Shown: positions 16,777 through 31,400, counted from the stretch's first letter. The stretch: DNA of 64,000 nt from Zootoca vivipara (GCF_963506605.1 NC_083285.1:69626001-69690000); one strand, 5' to 3'. The notes: generated from the sequence alone by a model not told the origin. Numbers and translations: made by a program.

Positions 16777-17729
16777 TTGTTGTTTAGTCGTTTAGTCGTG
16801 TCCGACTCTTCGTGACCCCATGGACCAGAGCACGCCAGGCACTCCTGTCTTGCACTGCCTCCCGCAGTTTGGTCAAACTCATGTTCGTAGCTTCGAGAAC
16901 ACTGTCCAACCATCTTGTCCTCTGTCGTCCCCTTCTCCTAGTGCCCTCAATCTTCCCAACATCAGGGTCTTTTCCAAGGATTCTTCTCTTCTCATGAGGT
17001 GGCCAAGGTATTGGAGCCTCAGCTTCACGATCTGTCCTTCCAGGGAGCACTCAGGGCTGATTTCCTTAAGAATGGATAGGTTTGATCTTCTAGCAGTCCA
17101 TGGGACTCTCAAGAGTCTCCTCCAGCACCATAATTCAAAAGCATCAATTCTTCGACGATCAGCCTTCTTTATGGTCCAGCTCTCACTTCCATACATCACT
17201 ACTGGGAAAACCATAGCTTTAACTATACGGACCTTTGTAGGCAAAGTGATGTCTCTGCTTTTTAAGATGCTGTCTAGGTTTGTCATTGCTTTTCTCCCAA
17301 GAAGCAGGCGTCTTTTAATTTCGTGACTGCTGTCACCATCTGCAGTGATCAAGGAGCCCAAGAAAGTAAAATCTCTCACTGCCTCCATTTCTTCCCCTTC
17401 TATTTGCCAGGAGGTGATGGGACCGGTGGCCATGATCTTGGTTTTTTTGATGTTGAGCTTCAGACCATATTTTGCGCTCTCCTCTTTCACCCTCATTAAA
17501 AGGTTCTTTAATTCCTCCTCGCTTTCTGCCATCAAGGTTGTGTCATCTGCATATCTGAGGTTGTTGATATTTCTTCCGGCAATCTTAATTCCGGCTTGGG
17601 ATTCATCTAGTCCAGCCTTTCGCATGATGAATTCTGCATATAAGTTAAATAAGCAGGGAGACAATATACAACCTTGTCGTACTCCTTTCCCAATTTTGAA
17701 CCAATCAGTTGTTCCATATCCAGTTCTAA
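16777..17729 (-). mobile_element. 5'-truncated RTE-BovB LINE (RT C-terminal part and 3' UTR)
   Basis: GVRQGCILSP..NLRYADDTTLMAESEEELK. (CAA)n tail. 12-bp TSD CTAGCCAGTGTG at 16765-16776 and 17730-17741. Confidence 0.95.
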
Positions 17730-17731
17730 CT

Positions 17732-17980
17732 AGCCAGTGTGGTGTAGTGGTTAAGAGCAGTAGACTAGACTCGTAATCTGGGGAATCAGGTTCGAGTCTC
17801 CACTCTTCCACATGCAGCTGCTTGGTGACCTTGGTCTAGTCACACTTCTCTGAAGTCTCTCAGCCTCACTCACCTCACAGAGTGTTTGTTGTGGGGGAGG
17901 AAGGGAAAGGAGAATGTTAGCCGCTTTGAGACTCCTTCAGGTAGTGATAAAGCAGGATATCAAATCCAAAATCCAAACTC
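17732..17980 (+). mobile_element. tRNA-derived SINE with BovB inserted at its 5' end
   Basis: The SINE head forms the BovB TSD. Confidence 0.85.
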
Positions 17981-21533: not shown

Positions 21534-23501
<1,968 letters not shown>

Positions 23502-23807
23502 ATGTATGGCATGTGGAAGGAACTTCAGTCAGAGGGGAGCCCTTGATTTAAGTCAAGAAACTAACACAAGAGACAAACCATACAAATGTCAGGAAAGTAG
23601 ATAGAGGGTCAGTCCTAGTGGAAGTCCTATATCAACAGACTCTTGAGCAGGAAGAACTTTTATAGTTTAACCGTACAAACCCATCAACAACTCAAGAGGA
23701 GAAGCAGTTTAAATGGAAAGATTTGCAGAAAGTGCTTTTGTTATAATGGAGTGTTTAAGAAACATCTTGGGACTCTCACAGGGGAGAACCCATTTAGATA
23801 TATGGAA

Positions 23808-23961
23808 CTAGTGGAATTCAGCCCGTTTAGTAAACGGGCGCTAGCTGGGCGGGAACAGAGGGGAAGCCCTGGGACGGCGCAGGCGTCGCCTCCACCAGCG
23901 GGGATGTGCGTGGAAGACCCCAGGCTCCACCTGGGTGGTTTGCTGTGGCGGCGGGTGGGCG

Positions 23962-24028
<67 letters not shown>

Positions 24029-24948
24029 GAGCGGGGCTTTTCTGGGATGTGCCGCCTGCGCGAGCTAAGTGCGCATTGCAGCCAGGCTGGTGGCAAGTTT
24101 GCACTCAGGGTCACTGTGGAATAGGGAGGACTGAATGTATTGGGGGTGGGAAGGGTGGGGGGGTTGTGTGTGTGTGCGGTATGTGTGTGGAGAGAGATGT
24201 GGTGGTCAAGCCACTCCGGCTCCAGCCTCTTATCAAAAGGTTGCTGTGGATCCCGTTTCCCTAAGCAACACCCAATAAAAGCCTCCATAAAAAATAAAAA
24301 TAAAATAAAAGCACAGCCGAGAGAGGGGCAGACGCAGACGGCTTTCTCTCCCCTTCGCCCCAAATGCTTTAATTTCCCCTCAAACGCGGCCTGTCTGGAC
24401 GGAGGAATCGAGGCTCTCGTTCGCTCGCTCGGCTTTGTGGGCGTTGTAGTTTCCCTTTCCCTCCTCCCTGCGCGGTATTAGAGACGGCTGTGTCGGGACG
24501 GGGGGTGGGTGGGCCGTGGCGGGCCAGGAGCGTGTCCTGCTCAGCTGTGTGTGTGCGTGTGTGTGTAAGAGAGAGAGAGCGCGAGCGCGCGCGAAGGGAA
24601 AAAGCAGCAGCCGTGAGAGGGGAAAGTTGCGGCTGCGTTTCCCTCCAGTGACTGCCTGAGATGGTTTGCTGTGGCGACGGGCGGGCGGTTTGTGTGTGTG
24701 TGTGTGCGCGAGAGAGAGAGAGAGAGAAGCGCACGGGTCTATCCCGCAGCCTCCTCCTTCTCGCACTGCTGCTTAGAAGCGAGTGGTTGGCGACCGCAAA
24801 CGGTAGGCAGAAGGGTTGGGGGGAGAGAGCGCGCGCCTGCGTTCCAAGTCTCTGGTCCAATCCCTGTATCCCTGGGGTACATGCGCAGTACCCCAGGGAC
24901 ACACGGGACAACTGGACGCAGGGACAACTTGGACATTATTATATAGGA
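23808..24948 (-). mobile_element. Non-autonomous Helitron (paralogous copy)
   Basis: Same termini, hairpin and A|T site as 566-1716. Confidence 0.92.
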
Positions 24949-25128
24949 TGTGGGACATGTTCCTCTCAGAATCCACTCTTTTCTTCACAGCAATGAACTC
25001 AGCAGGAAATCAGTCTTAAAAGCATGATGTGTATGTGAAGTTCTTGTGTTTATATGTAAAACTGAACAGTAATGAAATATTGAAGGCAATGTCTCACAAT
25101 AGGGAGTATAATTTTAGATGTAAGATAC

Positions 25129-25556
25129 TGTCACAGTGGCCTGAGTGGACTACTTCAGAGTAACGACGCTACGCAGCTCTGCATTTTATTCTTTTATTGG
25201 TGCTGCGTATTTACAGTGCTCAAGTCATTGCTATTTACACGGAGCGATGTTGTCAGTCGGTTTCAGAACCTCCTAATGGCTTTTGGCGCGTCTTTCTCCA
25301 ACACAAAAGCTTTGGCAGACCCATCCTCTTGCCCCTCCTCTTCCTGCGTAATTCTGGAGTTGGAGGGATGGGTCTTCCCCCCTTGCTTGCCCCTTCCTGT
25401 CCCACCTGGGACCCTGGCTCCTCTACCTTGCCTGAGCCTCGGACACGACTTCCTGCTTCCCCACTGGAATCGGAACTCTCCCTGCTTTCCCCTTTGCTCG
25501 GGGACGGGCTTGAACTCAGGAGGGGAGGGACTTCGCGATATCCCCTGTCCCTCACA
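25129..25556 (-). repeat. 3' LTR of the Gypsy element
   Basis: No differences seen by eye from 30514-30941. Purine-rich PPT (minus strand GGGAGGGGGGTGGA) abuts it at 25557-25570. Confidence 0.95.
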
Positions 25557-28500
25557 TCCACCCCCCTCCCAAGCTCTCCTTCACCCCTCCCCAGGCCCCC
25601 CCCATGTGTCGGTGACGACTGGAAGCCTAAGAACTCAGTGCTCTCCGAGCCCGTTGGTGTGAATACCTCCCCCCAGTCCTGCGAGCCCCCCCCTTCCGCC
25701 TGGGCGGACGGGAATCCCAAAAAGTCCGTGGCGTCAGAGCTGGTGGGGGTAAAAACGTTCTGCCAATCTGCTCCTTCCTCAGACTGGGTGGATCTCGGTG
25801 ACACCCATACCTCATCCTCTGGTTCCTCAAACTCCGCTTCCCAGCGCCATGGTGAGCTGCTCTCCCGTGCCTCCTCCTCCTCCCCCTCCCTTTCCATGTG
25901 CCAGGGCTTGGGTCTGTGGGGAAAGAGGGCGTGAAATTCTTCCACCAAGAATTCCTCCTGTATCTGAGTGGCTGGGACCCATTCATTCTGGGACGGTGGA
26001 GCATCCTCCCATGCCATGAGGTACTCCAGTCCCCCCACCCCCCACCTTGAATCCAGGATGGCCGTGGCCTCATTGAGTTGCTCCCTGCCTTCCCTCTCCC
26101 CCCCTCCCTCGGGGGTTTGTTCGCTGTCTCGGAGCCTGCTGCTTTCCCTGTACGGCGACAGCAGCGATCTATGAAACACTGGATGCACCCTCATGTCCTC
26201 TGGCAGTGCCAGCCTGTATGCCACCGGGTTTACCTGTTGCGTGACCGTGAAGGGGCCCAGCCTTTTGGGTGCCAGCTTTTTGCACCTCCCTCTGGTGGGA
26301 AGGCCCTCCGAGGACAACCACACCTTGTCCCCCACCCTGATGACCTCCCCTTGTCGCCTGTGGCGATCTGCCCCCTTTTTGTACGCTTCCTTGGCCCTCT
26401 CCAAGTGTTCTCTGAGCTGCTGGTGCACCGTCTCCAGTTCCTCTGCCCAATCCTCAGCCTGTGGGCCCTCCTCCTCCTCCTCCTCCCTCTCCCTCTCTGG
26501 GAAAGATCTGAGGTCGCGCCCGTAATTGGCCTTAAAGGGCGACACCCCTGTGGAGACGTGCACTGCATTGTTGTAGGCAAATTCTGCTAGTGGCAAGCGA
26601 TCCACCCAGTCCGTTTGCCGCTGGCTGACGTAGCATCTCAGGTACTGCTGCAGAATGGCGTTGACCCTCTCCGCTTGTCCGTTGGTCTGCGGGTGTCTAG
26701 CCGTCGACAAGCTGACCTCCACCTGCAGGAGGTTCATGAGCCGCCGCCAGAACCTGGAAACAAATTGGCGGCCACGATCCGAAATAACCCTTAAAGGTAA
26801 TCCATGCAGTCTGAAAATGTGATCAACAAACAGTTTGGCTGTCTCTTCTGCCGAGACTGCCCTGGCACACGGTATAAAGTGACACATTTTGGACATAAGG
26901 TCCACCACCACCAACACTGCAGTCTTACCCCTGGACGAAGGCAGATCTGTGATGAAGTCCATGGACACCACTTCCCACGGCCTGTGTGGTGTGGCTAAGG
27001 GCTCCAGCAACCCTGGTGGCGCTGCTCTGACCACCTTCGCCCGCTGGCAGGTGGTACAGCCCCTTACATAGTCTCGAACATCTTCCCGCACCCCTGGCCA
27101 CCAGAAGTGTCTCATGACTAGGTGAGCGGTTTTGTCCCTTCCAAAATGCCCCGCTGTAGGGTTGTCGTGCATCTGCTTGAGGACCGTACGTCGAAGCTGG
27201 GTGGTGGGCAGGTACAGCGCACCCTTGTAGAAAAGCAGCCCTCTGCGTTCTGCAAAGTCTTTTGCCTGCTCCCTCCCCCCTCTCAGTTCTCTGAAGATGC
27301 GGTTGGCAAATTCATCCGCTGCCGTCAGAGCTGTGAGTTCTGCCTCGCTCACCACAGCTGCTCCGCAGGACCATGCCGACGGGGGGAAAATGTGCCTTGG
27401 GGCTGGTGGCGCCTCCTCCTCCATGTACTCTGGCTTGCGGGAGAGGGCATCCGCCCTGACATTCTGCTCCCCCGGGATGTAGTGGATGGAGAAGTTGAAG
27501 TTCGAGAAGAACTCTGCCCACCGTATCTGCCGCTGGTTGAGCACCCTGGCAGTTCTCCAGAACTCCAGGTTCTTGTGGTCTGTGCACACCTGGATGGGGT
27601 GCTTTGCGCCCACCAGGAAGTGTCGCCAGTGCTGGAACGCAGCGTAGATCGCAAGAAGTTCCCTATCAAACACTGTGTAGTTGCGTTCAGGCTGTGTCAG
27701 CTTCCTGGAGAAGAAGGCACAGGGTCTCCACTCCCTGTTGGCGTCCAGTTGCAACAAAATTGCGCCCACAGCTTTTTCAGAAGCATCTGTCTCAATGCGT
27801 AGGGGCGCGTCCTGCACCACATGGAATAGGTTTTGGTCTGAGGCGAACACTCTCTTGAGGCTTTCGAACGCTGCTTGCGCCTCTGGTGTCCACTTGAACT
27901 TCTGCTTGCCTCTCAGGCAGTCCGTGATGGGAGCCGTAACGCGAGAGAAGTTCTTGATGAACTTCCTGTAGAAGTTAGCGAAGCCTAGTAGGCGTTGGGC
28001 ATCTTTGCGCGTCCTGGGGCTGTGCCAGTCCAGGATGGCCTGCACCTTGTCCTTGTCCATCGCCAGCCCCTTGTCTGACAGCTTGTAGCCCAGGAAGTCC
28101 ACCTCTTTGGTGTGAAACTTGCACTTCTCCAGCTTCACATACAGGTGGTTCTCCTTCAGGCGTTGCAACACCTCTCTGACATCTTTCACATGCTGCACTG
28201 GGTCATTCGAGTAGATAAGGATGTCATCTAGGAAGACCAAGCATTTCCTGAAGAGGAGGGACCCCAGGACGTGGTGCATGAAGGCCTGGAAGCATGCTGA
28301 GCCCCCTTGCAAACCGAAGGGCATCACCAGATATTCAAAAGAGCCCAGAGGCGTGAACATCGTGGTTTTCCATTCATCTCCTTCCCGGATCCTGATCAAG
28401 TTGTACGCCCCCCTTAGGTCCAGCTTGGTGAAAATCTTGCCCCTGCGTGCCGCTGTCAGGAGATCATCCACTCTGGGCATGGGGAAAGCCACTGGCTCTG

Positions 28501-29380
28501 TCACCGAATTCAGCCGTCTAAAGTCCACCACAAGACGGCGCTGTTGCGTGTCTTTCTTGTCCACCCAGAAGACCGGGCTGCCCCCTGCTGCCTTGCTTTC
28601 CCTTATGAACCCCCGCTTGAGGTTCTTGTCGATGAAAGCGCGCAGATCCTCCAGCTCCTGGTCTGACATGGCGTACAGCTTGGCTGGGGGTATCGTAGCC
28701 CCTGGCACCAGGTTGATCTGGCAGTCAAAAGGCCTGTGCGGGGGTAGGTGGTCGGACTCCGCTTCGCTGAAGACCTCCTGCAGGTCCCAGTACTGCTTGG
28801 GTATTGCCTCACCCCCTTTGATATGCATGGTGGCCACCGTGGCTATTGGAGGCCCCTCCCCTGGTTGGTGCTGCATGCAATGTTCCAGACAAAAGTCCGA
28901 CCCAAACGTGATGCACCTCTGGTGCCAACTGATGGAGGGGTCGTGGCGCGCCAGCCAGCTCATGCCCAAGACGATGGGGGGGTCTGAGATGGTGGTGACG
29001 TTGAACGCCAGTGTCTCTGAGTGCCTTCCCACCGTCATTCTCATGGGGGGGGTTTGATGTGTGATGGCCCCTCCCAGCAGCTCCCTGCCGTCAATGGTTG
29101 CCACGTGCAGAGGAAAATCCAACTGCAAAAGCTGGATTTGGTGCTCTTCTGCAAAGCTTCTCGAGAAGAAGTTGGCGGACGCCCCACTGTCAATTAAGGC
29201 AAGGACTGTCAGGGGATAGCCATTTGGGAGCGTTAGCGTCACTTCTAGAACCACTCCTGCTCTGGGAGGGGTGGGCTGGCTCTGCACCTCTCTGTGCGGG
29301 TGGGCGGGCTGGGGCTGTTGTCTGCTGACTGTGCCTGGCTGCTGCCCCTTGTCTCCTGCAGCCAGGCTTTCCCGTTTCCC
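25253..29380 (-). CDS. pol: Pol (protease, RT, RNase H, integrase, chromodomain, acidic tail), entered by -1 frameshift
   Basis: LIDSGA; FLDDILIYS; ETDAS; HDNPTAGH..CTTC; DFITDL/SDRG/ERVN; GPF; chromo-like ILDSR..EYLMAWED..NEWV. The frame is open from the slippery site. Confidence 0.95.
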   Translation of the reverse strand, partial: GKRESLAAGDKGQQPGTVSRQQPQPAHPHREVQSQPTPPRAGVVLEVTLTLPNGYPLTVLALIDSGASANFFSRSFAEEHQIQLLQLDFPLHVATIDGRELLGGAITHQTPPMRMTVGRHSETLAFNVTTISDPPIVLGMSWLARHDPSISWHQRCITFGSDFCLEHCMQHQPGEGPPIATVATMHIKGGEAIPKQYWDLQEVFSEAESDHLPPHRPFDCQINLVPGATIPPAKLYAMSDQELEDLRAFIDKNLKRGFIRESKAAGGSPVFWVDKKDTQQRRLVVDFRRLNSVTEPVAFPMPRVDDLLTAARRGKIFTKLDLRGAYNLIRIREGDEWKTTMFTPLGSFEYLVMPFGLQGGSACFQAFMHHVLGSLLFRKCLVFLDDILIYSNDPVQHVKDVREVLQRLKENHLYVKLEKCKFHTKEVDFLGYKLSDKGLAMDKDKVQAILDWHSPRTRKDAQRLLGFANFYRKFIKNFSRVTAPITDCLRGKQKFKWTPEAQAAFESLKRVFASDQNLFHVVQDAPLRIETDASEKAVGAILLQLDANREWRPCAFFSRKLTQPERNYTVFDRELLAIYAAFQHWRHFLVGAKHPIQVCTDHKNLEFWRTARVLNQRQIRWAEFFSNFNFSIHYIPGEQNVRADALSRKPEYMEEEAPPAPRHIFPPSAWSCGAAVVSEAELTALTAADEFANRIFRELRGGREQAKDFAERRGLLFYKGALYLPTTQLRRTVLKQMHDNPTAGHFGRDKTAHLVMRHFWWPGVREDVRDYVRGCTTCQRAKVVRAAPPGLLEPLATPHRPWEVVSMDFITDLPSSRGKTAVLVVVDLMSKMCHFIPCARAVSAEETAKLFVDHIFRLHGLPLRVISDRGRQFVSRFWRRLMNLLQVEVSLSTARHPQTNGQAERVNAILQQYLRCYVSQRQTDWVDRLPLAEFAYNNAVHVSTGVSPFKANYGRDLRSFPEREREEEEEEGPQAEDWAEELETVHQQLREHLERAKEAYKKGADRHRRQGEVIRVGDKVWLSSEGLPTRGRCKKLAPKRLGPFTVTQQVNPVAYRLALPEDMRVHPVFHRSLLSPYRESSRLRDSEQTPEGGGEREGREQLNEATAILDSRWGVGGLEYLMAWEDAPPSQNEWVPATQIQEEFLVEEFHALFPHRPKPWHMEREGEEEEARESSSPWRWEAEFEEPEDEVWVSPRSTQSEEGADWQNVFTPTSSDATDFLGFPSAQAEGGGSQDWGEVFTPTGSESTEFLGFQSSPTHGGGLGRGEGELGRGVDVRDRGYREVPPLLSSSPSPSKGESRESSDSSGEAGSRVRGSGKVEEPGSQVGQEGASKGGRPIPPTPELRRKRRGKRMGLPKLLCWRKTRQKPLGGSETD

Positions 29381-30471
29381 TGCTGTGGTGCTGCGTCAGT
29401 GGGGGAGGGCACCACCGTTCCCGCCTTTCCTTGCCACTCCCTGCGATGTGGGCAGTCTCTGACGAGATGCTGGGGTGAGTTGCAGAGAAAGCAATTCCCG
29501 CCCCTTCCCTCCTTGCGTCTTGGCGCCGCTGGGGTTTGAAAAGCCCGCGCGCGCGCGCTATCAATCTGCAAGGGCTCCTGGTCCTGGCTGGCTCCAGGCG
29601 TGGCTTGAAAGGGTTGTTGAGGGAGTGGCTTCTCCTGCGACCGTGGGAACCAAGCCCGCTTTGCGCGCGTCGCTTGCTTGTCGTTCCACCGGGATTCCTG
29701 CCTCACCCCCACCGCCAGAGCTGCTTTGCTCAGCTGATCCATAGTACTGGGCTTTGGACCTCTCGAGAGTTCATCCTTCACCTCCTCGCTCAAACCCAAG
29801 TAAAACGCAGCTTGCATGGGAGGCGAATCCAAAACCCACCCCAGTCTGTGCACCAGCATGGTGAATTTCGCCCAATATGCGCGAACTGTCATATTTCCTT
29901 GGCGTAAATTATGCAGTTCCTCCTTAGTCTGGTCCAAATGACTATCGGACGAATACATCGTCCTCAAACCTTCTAGAAATTGTTGGACATTTTTCATGCA
30001 AGGATTCTTGGTTGCGATTAATGGTCTTAGCCACTCCCTGGCTGCTCCGGTGAGATGTTCCACAATAAACGCTACTCTGTGCTCATCATCGGGGAACTCA
30101 TTCTGGTGCAGCTCAAGAGCATACACGATCTCAGTCTCAAAGCCCTGAAACTCCTTCGGGTCTCCATTGAACTTGCTTACAAGGGTCCCTGCTCTCCTTC
30201 CTGGCAGCACTTGGACTTGGGGAGCCCCTCCCGCCTTGTTTTTCTCTGCATCCAGCTTGTTTTGGAGGTCTACCGCCACCGCCCTTAAATGCTGCTCTTT
30301 TTCCTGGAGCTCTCTCACCTGTTCCGCAAGTTGTAGCCGGTCGTCCTGGACCTTCTTAGTCTCCTCTTTAGCTGCCTTCAATTCTCCCTGCGCCTGCAGC
30401 GACAGCTGTTGCAGTTCTAGCTGGGCTTGCTCAGCGATCTGCCGCCACTTCTCCGCCTCGGACACGCTCAT
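29245..30471 (-). CDS. gag: Gag (PEG10/sushi-like): coiled coil, capsid and CCHC zinc knuckle
   Basis: First ATG at 30471 (MSVSEAEKW). Motifs KFNGDPKEFQGF, EPLQID and CFLCNSPQHLVRDC. Confidence 0.93.
   Translation of the reverse strand: MSVSEAEKWRQIAEQAQLELQQLSLQAQGELKAAKEETKKVQDDRLQLAEQVRELQEKEQHLRAVAVDLQNKLDAEKNKAGGAPQVQVLPGRRAGTLVSKFNGDPKEFQGFETEIVYALELHQNEFPDDEHRVAFIVEHLTGAAREWLRPLIATKNPCMKNVQQFLEGLRTMYSSDSHLDQTKEELHNLRQGNMTVRAYWAKFTMLVHRLGWVLDSPPMQAAFYLGLSEEVKDELSRGPKPSTMDQLSKAALAVGVRQESRWNDKQATRAKRAWFPRSQEKPLPQQPFQATPGASQDQEPLQIDSARARAFQTPAAPRRKEGRGGNCFLCNSPQHLVRDCPHRREWQGKAGTVVPSPTDAAPQQGNGKAWLQETRGSSQAQSADNSPSPPTRTERCRASPPLPEQEWF
29333..29380 (-). promoter_or_regulatory. -1 programmed ribosomal frameshift signal
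   Basis: G GGA AAC (29380-29374) in the correct gag phase, a 6-nt spacer, then a 10-bp stem GCCTGGCTGC/GCAGCCAGGC. Pol is in the -1 frame. Confidence 0.88.
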
Positions 30472-30478
30472 CCCGGCA

Positions 30479-30662
30479 ACTCCGAAGTAGCCCAAAAAGG
30501 ATTAGGAGGTTGCTGTCACAGTGGCCTGAGTGGACTACTTCAGAGTAACGACGCTACGCAGCTCTGCATTTTATTCTTTTATTGGTGCTGCGTATTTACA
30601 GTGCTCAAGTCATTGCTATTTACACGGAGCGATGTTGTCAGTCGGTTTCAGAACCTCCTAAT
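30479..30662 (-). promoter_or_regulatory. Self-priming PBS and U5-leader stem
   Basis: 11-nt inverted repeat at 30501-30511 and 30652-30662. 16-bp helix between 30479-30494 and 30531-30546. No TGG-type tRNA PBS. Confidence 0.8.
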
Positions 30663-30941
30663 GGCTTTTGGCGCGTCTTTCTCCAACACAAAAGCTTTGG
30701 CAGACCCATCCTCTTGCCCCTCCTCTTCCTGCGTAATTCTGGAGTTGGAGGGATGGGTCTTCCCCCCTTGCTTGCCCCTTCCTGTCCCACCTGGGACCCT
30801 GGCTCCTCTACCTTGCCTGAGCCTCGGACACGACTTCCTGCTTCCCCACTGGAATCGGAACTCTCCCTGCTTTCCCCTTTGCTCGGGGACGGGCTTGAAC
30901 TCAGGAGGGGAGGGACTTCGCGATATCCCCTGTCCCTCACA
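30514..30941 (-). repeat. 5' LTR of the Gypsy element
   Basis: TG...CA ends. Two minus-strand AATAAA signals around 30568-30584. Confidence 0.95.
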
Positions 30942-31400
30942 GATACCTTTTGATAGAGAGGGAAAATCTGAATTGGTGGTGGGGAGTGAGGATTAGGGCT
31001 GGGCGATATATTAATAGCTCGTCCATACCGGTTTCTAGACCACATCACGATAACCTTTGAAAAACAATTGATATGGCAATAAACCACGAATCACAGTGTG
31101 TGTTTCTAGGATGTACCTGGAAGCAGCCGGCAGAAAACTTTGCTTCGTGAAGCCCCTGCACATGCCCAGTTGCTGACTTCCCTCCCAGACGACAGGAAGC
31201 GAAACACACACCTCCATTGCCCTGTGTCGTTCCAGCCTCTTTCCTCCCTTGCTCCCTTCTGCCGGTTTGTGTGCCTGACCTAGATATACTGTGGGTGTAT
31301 TTTTTTACTGCCAAAACTGGATTTTGTGCCTCACTGGGAACCCAATGAGAACTGTATGCTTTGAACCCTCAGTAAACTATAACTGAAGAAGTCCTGCTTC

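Follow-up and report, generated by a model that had tools for sequence, protein, structure and literature searches.

The window analysed here, a 64,000-nucleotide stretch of the Zootoca vivipara genome, contains a full-length Ty3/gypsy chromovirus on the minus strand. The stretch in question is the C-terminal tail of its Pol protein, which carries two short motifs laid out like the host motifs that dock on TFIIS N-terminal domains (TNDs). The coordinates of the features are collected in Table 1. The assignment to the chromoviruses is based on long terminal repeats (LTRs), a target-site duplication (TSD), gag, and the order of the Pfam matches in pol: protease, reverse transcriptase (RT), RNase H, integrase, SH3 and a C-terminal chromodomain, followed by a tail of 225 aa (about 220 aa in a preliminary description of this DNA). 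Pol appears to be reached from gag by frameshifting, as its frame is −1 relative to gag and a slippery-type heptamer precedes it. The insertion site was empty in seven paralogous zinc-finger (ZNF) repeat units of the window.

The family is young and is bursting now: the two LTRs are identical, and at least 150 copies (all 150 that were scored out of 3148 candidates) were 100% identical over a 180-aa tail query, most of them lying in open frames of 1380 aa. DNA identity over the tail and LTR was 99–100% in all 30 copies compared. In total, 140 copies were located on chromosomes C1–C4, which extrapolates to approximately 420 genome-wide. Reads of element RNA spanned the tail in three of three RNA runs, which were chosen by species label, and among the joints listed none removes the tail. 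No obvious tRNA primer-binding site was seen by eye after the 5' LTR (30470-30513); self-priming occurs in Tf1-type elements.

The FLGF sequences start at Pol aa 1225 and 1255, 30 aa (90 nt) apart, exactly where the preliminary description had placed them within a 30-aa unit occurring twice. The two units have 14 residues in common, 12 of which are specified by different codons (the exceptions being Trp, with its single codon, and one Phe), in agreement with the earlier remark that W, VFTPT and FLGF are kept despite codon differences. Over a 21-codon core, the units were identical at 17, 18, and 6 of the 21 first, second, and third codon positions, respectively. The proportions of synonymous and nonsynonymous differences (pS and pN) were 0.88 and 0.20 in the core, and pN was 0.68 in the 9 flanking codons. 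Near-saturated third positions together with kept first and second positions point to selection at the protein level; neither duplication in the recent past nor a signal in the nucleic acid would leave this pattern. It is therefore extremely improbable that the repeat is a neutral spacer duplication or is kept for RNA or DNA reasons beside the polypurine tract (PPT). Its position would suit such an origin, since duplications are frequent in LTR elements immediately before the PPT, but the codon pattern largely refutes it, and relatives at 40–60% identity retain the motif residues.

Chance occurrence was estimated by shuffling the 120-aa spacer 200,000 times: the pattern [VILM]F-x7-13-FxGF arose in a fraction of 0.001 of the shuffles, compared with 0.048 for FxGF by itself. 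In 80 genomic flanks, translated in six frames to 1.6 million residues, the acidic form of the pattern occurred twice. Each window motif has a linker with two Asp/Glu, five Ser/Thr, and one CK2-type site. The tail had been called acidic as a whole, which applies to its first 120 aa, up to the PPT (27 Asp/Glu, 8 Lys/Arg); the last 100 aa, encoded by the 3' LTR, are basic (12 Asp/Glu, 22 Lys/Arg).

The only homolog from a whole-length search, P0001, has Leu-Phe, eight residues, and FHGF right after its chromodomain. With the post-chromodomain region of P0001 as the query, 21 older, broken loci were recovered in the host genome (G000), a set biased by the motif contained in the query itself. All 21 carry motifs (one, two, and three motifs in 5, 9, and 7 loci, respectively). 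Of their 47 FxGF matches, 44 are preceded by [VILM]F at 7–9 residues, with a linker of 8 or 9 residues in 43 of the 44; the other three have no upstream Phe, and two of these are another frame read over a motif already counted. The x of FxGF was Arg in 14, Leu in 13, Glu in 7, Lys in 3, Gly in 2, Gln in 2, and Val, Pro, and a stop in one each, and the linkers of 39 older motifs contained on average 3.0 Asp/Glu and 2.7 Ser/Thr. The conserved unit thus exceeds FLGF and consists of [VI]F, an acidic or Ser/Thr linker of 8–9 residues, and FxGF with a free x. A further segment of the window tail, with Trp followed by Phe and an acidic run, is a possible decayed third motif, judging by its position, which corresponds to the middle motif of the older loci. 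The basic run at the end of Pol and the G-hydrophobic-P-x-L-L-C-W following it are retained in 11 of the 21 older loci (L032-L052; a twelfth match, in L044, was dropped as unrelated sequence) despite the diverging LTR around them. LLCW after a basic run was also found in P0048 and P0051.

A less biased set was obtained from the best 150 of 189 representative-library matches, which mostly matched via the chromodomain. When these were ranked by chromodomain score, the top 10 proteins all belonged to one clade, and nine of them had a tail FxGF; the tenth, P0047, appears to change frame in the tail. Two further Podarcis proteins carried one motif and two motifs, respectively. All named relatives within the motif clade are from the lacertids Podarcis or Zootoca, and the nearest relatives outside it include fish and frog elements. 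Conservation and selection, proposed earlier as a check on the motifs, were thus borne out by the diverged relatives and by the low pN of the core.

Table 1. Features of the element and its surroundings (positions in the window unless stated otherwise).
Feature	Position	Strand	Remarks
5' LTR	30514..30941	-	428 bp, TG...CA ends; 100% identity to 3' LTR
3' LTR	25129..25556	-	428 bp; codes for final ~100 aa of Pol
TSD, 5 bp	left copy 25124..25128 (+); right copy 30942-30946		Flanking the element
gag open reading frame (ORF)	29245..30501	-	418 aa stop to stop; Ty3 capsid and zinc knuckle (Pfam)
Slippery-type heptamer G GGA AAC	29374..29380	-	In the gag/pol overlap; from sequence
pol ORF	25253..29395	-	1380 aa stop to stop; stop codon within 3' LTR
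Chromodomain, degenerate aromatic cage, group II-like	25931..26068	-	aa 1110-1155, Pfam E 3.8e-6
Possible decayed third motif	25805..25843	-	Trp, then Phe and acidic run, without FxGF
Motif 1, like a TND-interacting motif (TIM)	25706..25771	-	W-x-x-V-F, 9-aa Ser/Thr/acidic linker, FLGF 25723-25712
TIM-like motif 2	25616..25681	-	Layout as motif 1, FLGF 25633-25622
PPT, purine-rich tract directly before 3' LTR	25557..25585 (approximate bounds)	-	Translated within pol
Basic stretch resembling a nuclear localization signal, then G-hydrophobic-P-x-L-L-C-W	25298..25348	-	LTR-encoded Pol end
C2H2 zinc-finger ORF upstream of insertion (context)	21534..23501	+	Ends 1.63 kb before element at 25129
146-bp satellite arrays (G000)	C1:131.75-132.65 Mb, C2:119.30-119.87, C3:5.10-5.78, C4:3.35-4.18		L087, L148-L163, L168-L169, L184-L223

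According to a review, a TIM always contains a helix bearing hydrophobic anchors, which is followed by an acidic linker of 8–16 aa; Ser, Thr, and Gly abound in this linker, and CK2 phosphorylates it. FxGF comes last and may be absent, although it is present in every known LEDGF and HRP2 partner, and tandem TIMs exist (PMC9987994). The element has the FxGF, Ser/Thr-rich linkers of 8–9 residues whose acidity is low without phosphorylation, and hydrophobic anchors before the linker in the 44 older matches mentioned above. For comparison, three host motifs were found upstream of PF10497 exons in two genes of G000, with Ile-Phe, linkers of 8, 10, and 8 residues containing 4–5 Asp/Glu, and FxGF. The two genes are presumably CDCA7L/JPO2 and CDCA7. 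The retrotransposon motifs share layout and spacing with these host motifs, and not FxGF alone, so the resemblance noted in the preliminary description is strengthened. Like the TIMs or LEDGF integrase-binding-domain-binding motifs (IBMs) of JPO2, MLL1, IWS1, PogZ, and JIL-1 (ELM LIG_LEDGF_IBM_1), they combine a hydrophobic residue and Phe, an acidic Ser/Thr linker (8–10 residues), and FxGF, with a free x, tandem copies, and a low-complexity setting. The lizard motifs differ in being on a retrotransposon integrase, and those of the window also in their less acidic linkers and in having no strict D/ExEx prefix. PogZ is transposase-derived yet a host gene, unlike the lizard element.

As to possible partners, the host encodes an HRP2 TND: a PF11467 search returned one HRP2-like exon, 97% identical to a Zootoca protein. 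PSIP1/LEDGF was not returned by this search, which, with its exons being short, is no evidence of absence. At least eight PF08711 TND matches were also found in the host genome. FxFG nucleoporin repeats and the F-G-x-hydrophobic motifs bound by adaptin ears were considered as alternative identities and rejected, as the motifs of the element always have Gly in third place whereas x varies freely. A PDB sequence search with the two motifs gave one chance beta-propeller match only, and the Protein Atlas comparison returned only chromodomain clusters (0.83-0.84). A single-sequence fold of the chromodomain and tail (predicted local distance difference test score 53) had no helix at the motif anchors, and the chromodomain was misfolded as well.

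It is very improbable that the motifs serve another host partner, such as LC3/Atg8 through W-x-x-V, an AGC-kinase pocket through F-x-x-F, or Fbw7/GSK3 through T-P-x-x-S. Both window motifs do contain an acidic W-x-x-V and T-P-T-x-S. However, only 15 of the 44 motifs have Val four residues ahead of the Phe, T-P is replaced in several, the Gly is invariant, no third aromatic follows FxGF, and the fixed spacing of 8–9 residues would be left unexplained.

The chromodomain was aligned to HP1 (chain 1kna), and the cage positions Y24/W45/Y48 of HP1 were found to read N/W/A in the element. The three aromatics of group I chromodomains (HP1-like, H3K9me-reading) are not all present, and H3K9me reading by this chromodomain is unlikely, judging by its residues. 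Cage aromatics were counted in 156 rows (one of 157 proteins was dropped, having no chromodomain match), and a quick chromodomain tree was made from 65 columns. All ten rows with a tail FxGF keep 0–1 cage aromatics and fall within one 15-row clade (Shimodaira–Hasegawa-like approximate likelihood ratio test, SH-aLRT, 100). All 15 rows of this clade keep 0–1; of the five without FxGF, one is P0047, and the other four are decayed and have the same chromodomain sequence. Three aromatics were found in 122 of the 141 rows outside the clade, two in 15, and one in 4; tail FxGF was found in none of the 141, 105 of which have at least 30 residues of tail. The readable older loci gave the same picture as the clade, 17 of 17 keeping 0–1 aromatics. 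Within the clade, P0001, P0049, P0054, P0196, and P0197 form a sub-branch in which the central cage Trp is also lost, and whose linker has five Ser/Thr and no Asp/Glu, with acidic residues following FxGF instead.

In group II chromodomains, which the accounts in PMC3350952 and PMC3605345 present as plant-only, the first and usually the third cage aromatic are missing. This description fits the chromodomain of the element, as a descriptive match only, and the group II-like state is probably convergent with that of plants. With a degenerate cage across the motif clade, the idea that the integrase reads H3K9me3 and H3K36me3 in combination loses its basis.

On the basis of what was directly observed (selected motifs that resemble those of the host and are spread through a single clade, and the loss of the cage), we consider it fairly probable that the tail motifs mimic TIMs and bind the TNDs of LEDGF and/or HRP2, thereby tethering the integrase to chromatin. 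In such a mechanism, the W-x-x-V-F part would fold as a short helix into one pocket of the TND and FxGF would enter the other, while phosphorylation of the linker Ser/Thr would make up for the negative charge that is lacking. Avidity could result from the presence of several motifs on each monomer of a multimeric intasome. The PWWP domains of LEDGF/HRP2 would then bias insertion broadly, not toward one gene class, and the TND tether would replace the largely lost methyl-lysine pocket of the chromodomain.

Several results speak against TND tethering of this kind. CDCA7 reportedly does not bind LEDGF, and the gene assigned to it carries the host-motif layout, so that the layout may not suffice for binding. 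The strict LEDGF IBM consensus of 2015, D/ExExFxGF (quoted in PMC8022399), is missed by both window motifs, which have Thr at the second Glu, and by 44 of the 47 older FxGF matches; three meet it, and 29 of the 47 fit if Ser/Thr may replace the acid. The two Asp/Glu of the window linkers compare with 4–5 in the host motifs and with none in the P0001/P0049/P0054 type, and with five Ser/Thr and one CK2-type site they would need to be phosphorylated to bind strongly. No PDB chain was matched at E 10 by a profile built from 41 copies of the motif, and known TIM peptides were thus not recovered. Cage loss and motif gain share one branch and therefore count as a single event, which is no proof of a causal link. 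The flanks of 40 insertions and 40 random sites were alike in GC, CpG, strand skew, and repeat cover, which are weak proxies for gene bodies. Finally, 13 of the 140 copies lie in arrays of a 146-bp satellite that make up at most 0.62% of C1–C4, approximately 15-fold over their share, an excess that is a misfit with simple H3K36me3 gene-body tethering.

One such array is located near one end of each of C1–C4, and the satellite is probably centromeric. The arrays were found after the fact; the pattern recurred on all four chromosomes. One 5-bp site of the monomer, at monomer position 62, is occupied by 10 of the 13 satellite copies, which are distributed over the four chromosomes and lie in both orientations (six against four). 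In 40 insertions (L057-L096), the general target preference was weak: TSD position 3 was A/T in 35 of them, as was the base lying three positions outside the TSD in 38. Under this preference the hotspot ranks only 12th–74th of 292 sites. The density, the single position used in both orientations, and this low rank would be accounted for if the tail or the altered chromodomain sent part of the insertions to centromere-type satellite through a non-TND partner. In this the element would resemble plant CRM elements, with which it shares a Pol ORF running into the 3' LTR, a conserved end motif (here the second conserved motif, in the LTR-encoded Pol end), and some copies in satellite; CR motifs in LTR-extended ORFs are reported to mark centromeric plant elements (PMC3605345). 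The likeness is by description, homology not being claimed, and the lizard copies, unlike those of CRM, are mostly dispersed. We regard this explanation as quite improbable: it accounts for 9% of the copies and not for the TIM-like layout, the arrays were a post hoc finding with an inferred centromeric role, and the satellite share may also fit TND tethering. A preference for the marks of silent chromatin and complexes with CBX1 and POGZ are reported for HRP2 (PMC4797281), so the satellite share may reflect HRP2 or else a separate device.

Overall, insertion is broad. Chromosome ends were favoured, with 48 of 117 copies in the outer tenth of C1–C3 (38 of 107 without the satellite copies, p 2e-4), and GC is higher there. 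The preliminary description, which had placed the element correctly downstream of a ZNF ORF, had proposed a check for enrichment in ZNF clusters. Such a preference was not seen: a ZNF array was present in 1 of 40 insertion flanks and in none of the 40 random ones, 5 of the 38 C2 copies lay in the KRAB cluster of that chromosome (0.9-13.7 Mb; 4.0 expected, p 0.59), and the C4 ZNF cluster held 2 of 23 copies (1.2 expected).

The motifs might also bind LEDGF/HRP2 or another TND protein without choosing the site, acting instead in integrase stability, chromatin retention, repair, or transcription of the new copy. With 91% of the 140 C1–C4 copies outside the satellite, flanks like random DNA, and the many PF08711 matches in the host, such a role would be compatible with the insertion data, and there are precedents in the stabilisation of JIL-1 by JASPer through an FxGF contact (10.1101/624023) and in the recombination repair functions described for LEDGF and HRP2 (PMC4797281). 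It is nevertheless unlikely, given the excess of non-satellite copies at chromosome ends, albeit where GC is higher, and the origin of the motif on the very branch where the histone pocket decays, as a replacement tether predicts. Returning to TND tethering, we propose tentatively, at somewhat less than an even chance, that this lacertid Ty3/gypsy clade swapped its targeting. It would have lost the H3K9me cage and gained tandem, phospho-tunable TIMs recruiting LEDGF and HRP2, with insertions shared out between the two readers, some going to active chromosome ends and others to centromeric satellite.

Lentiviral integrases use LEDGF/HRP2 as chromatin tethers (PMC9987994), and the viral-mimicry section of that review names lentiviral integrases only. 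The host readers proposed for the lizard integrase are the same. In lentiviruses, the integrase contacts LEDGF through folded domains, whereas the Ty3/gypsy integrase of the lizard carries an appended linear motif of host type, and its flank proxies gave no gene-body signal. Short targeting motifs on integrase tails are already known, with the C-terminal Ty5 hexapeptide, Ty1, and murine leukaemia virus (MLV) motifs engaging Sir4, AC40, and BET proteins, respectively (PMC7459421). The lizard motif differs from these in its proposed partner, in its one to three copies, in its vertebrate Ty3/gypsy carrier, and in insertion being broad, not narrow. Host mimicry and phospho-control have reportedly been found for the Ty5 motif. 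Vertebrate and fungal chromoviruses with group I chromodomains (MAGGY type) share the domain order from protease to chromodomain, but not the cage of at most one aromatic or the long motif-bearing tail.

Within titles and abstract openings, with subscription papers mostly outside this scope, no FxGF/TIM motif or LEDGF/HRP2 binding was described for an LTR retrotransposon integrase. Tethering through LEDGF/HRP2 is known from lentiviruses. If the proposed binding is true, an LTR retrotransposon would have arrived independently at the host cofactor used by HIV-1, by copying a host linear motif. This second, independent linear-motif route would make TND readers a recurring handle for integrating elements, and the clade would provide a natural example of another device taking over from a chromodomain. 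With the current burst, hundreds of fresh insertions are available in a single genome for comparison with chromatin marks. A group II-like chromodomain in a vertebrate and a single-site hotspot in a 146-bp satellite are notable even if the LEDGF link fails.

The element is inserted in one unit of a tandem array of at least eight near-identical C2H2 zinc-finger gene units, which makes up the window (1-64000). RNA reads cover 24900-25128 up to the insertion site, mostly in the mate orientation of the ZNF 3' end (multi-copy sequence; one site), and the insertion site is probably ZNF-family 3' untranslated sequence. In 23502-25128, RNA joints skipping approximately 1.14 kb without GT-AG ends were observed, which probably stem from paralogues lacking the skipped sequence. 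The window also contains a LINE RT fragment (16879-17835, minus strand), which we take to be BovB-like and which represents another very young burst. More than 18,000 first-look candidates for it were found in G000, many matches being 99–100% identical; BovB was unusable as a positional control, as the 150 matches listed for it covered only C1 0-49 Mb.

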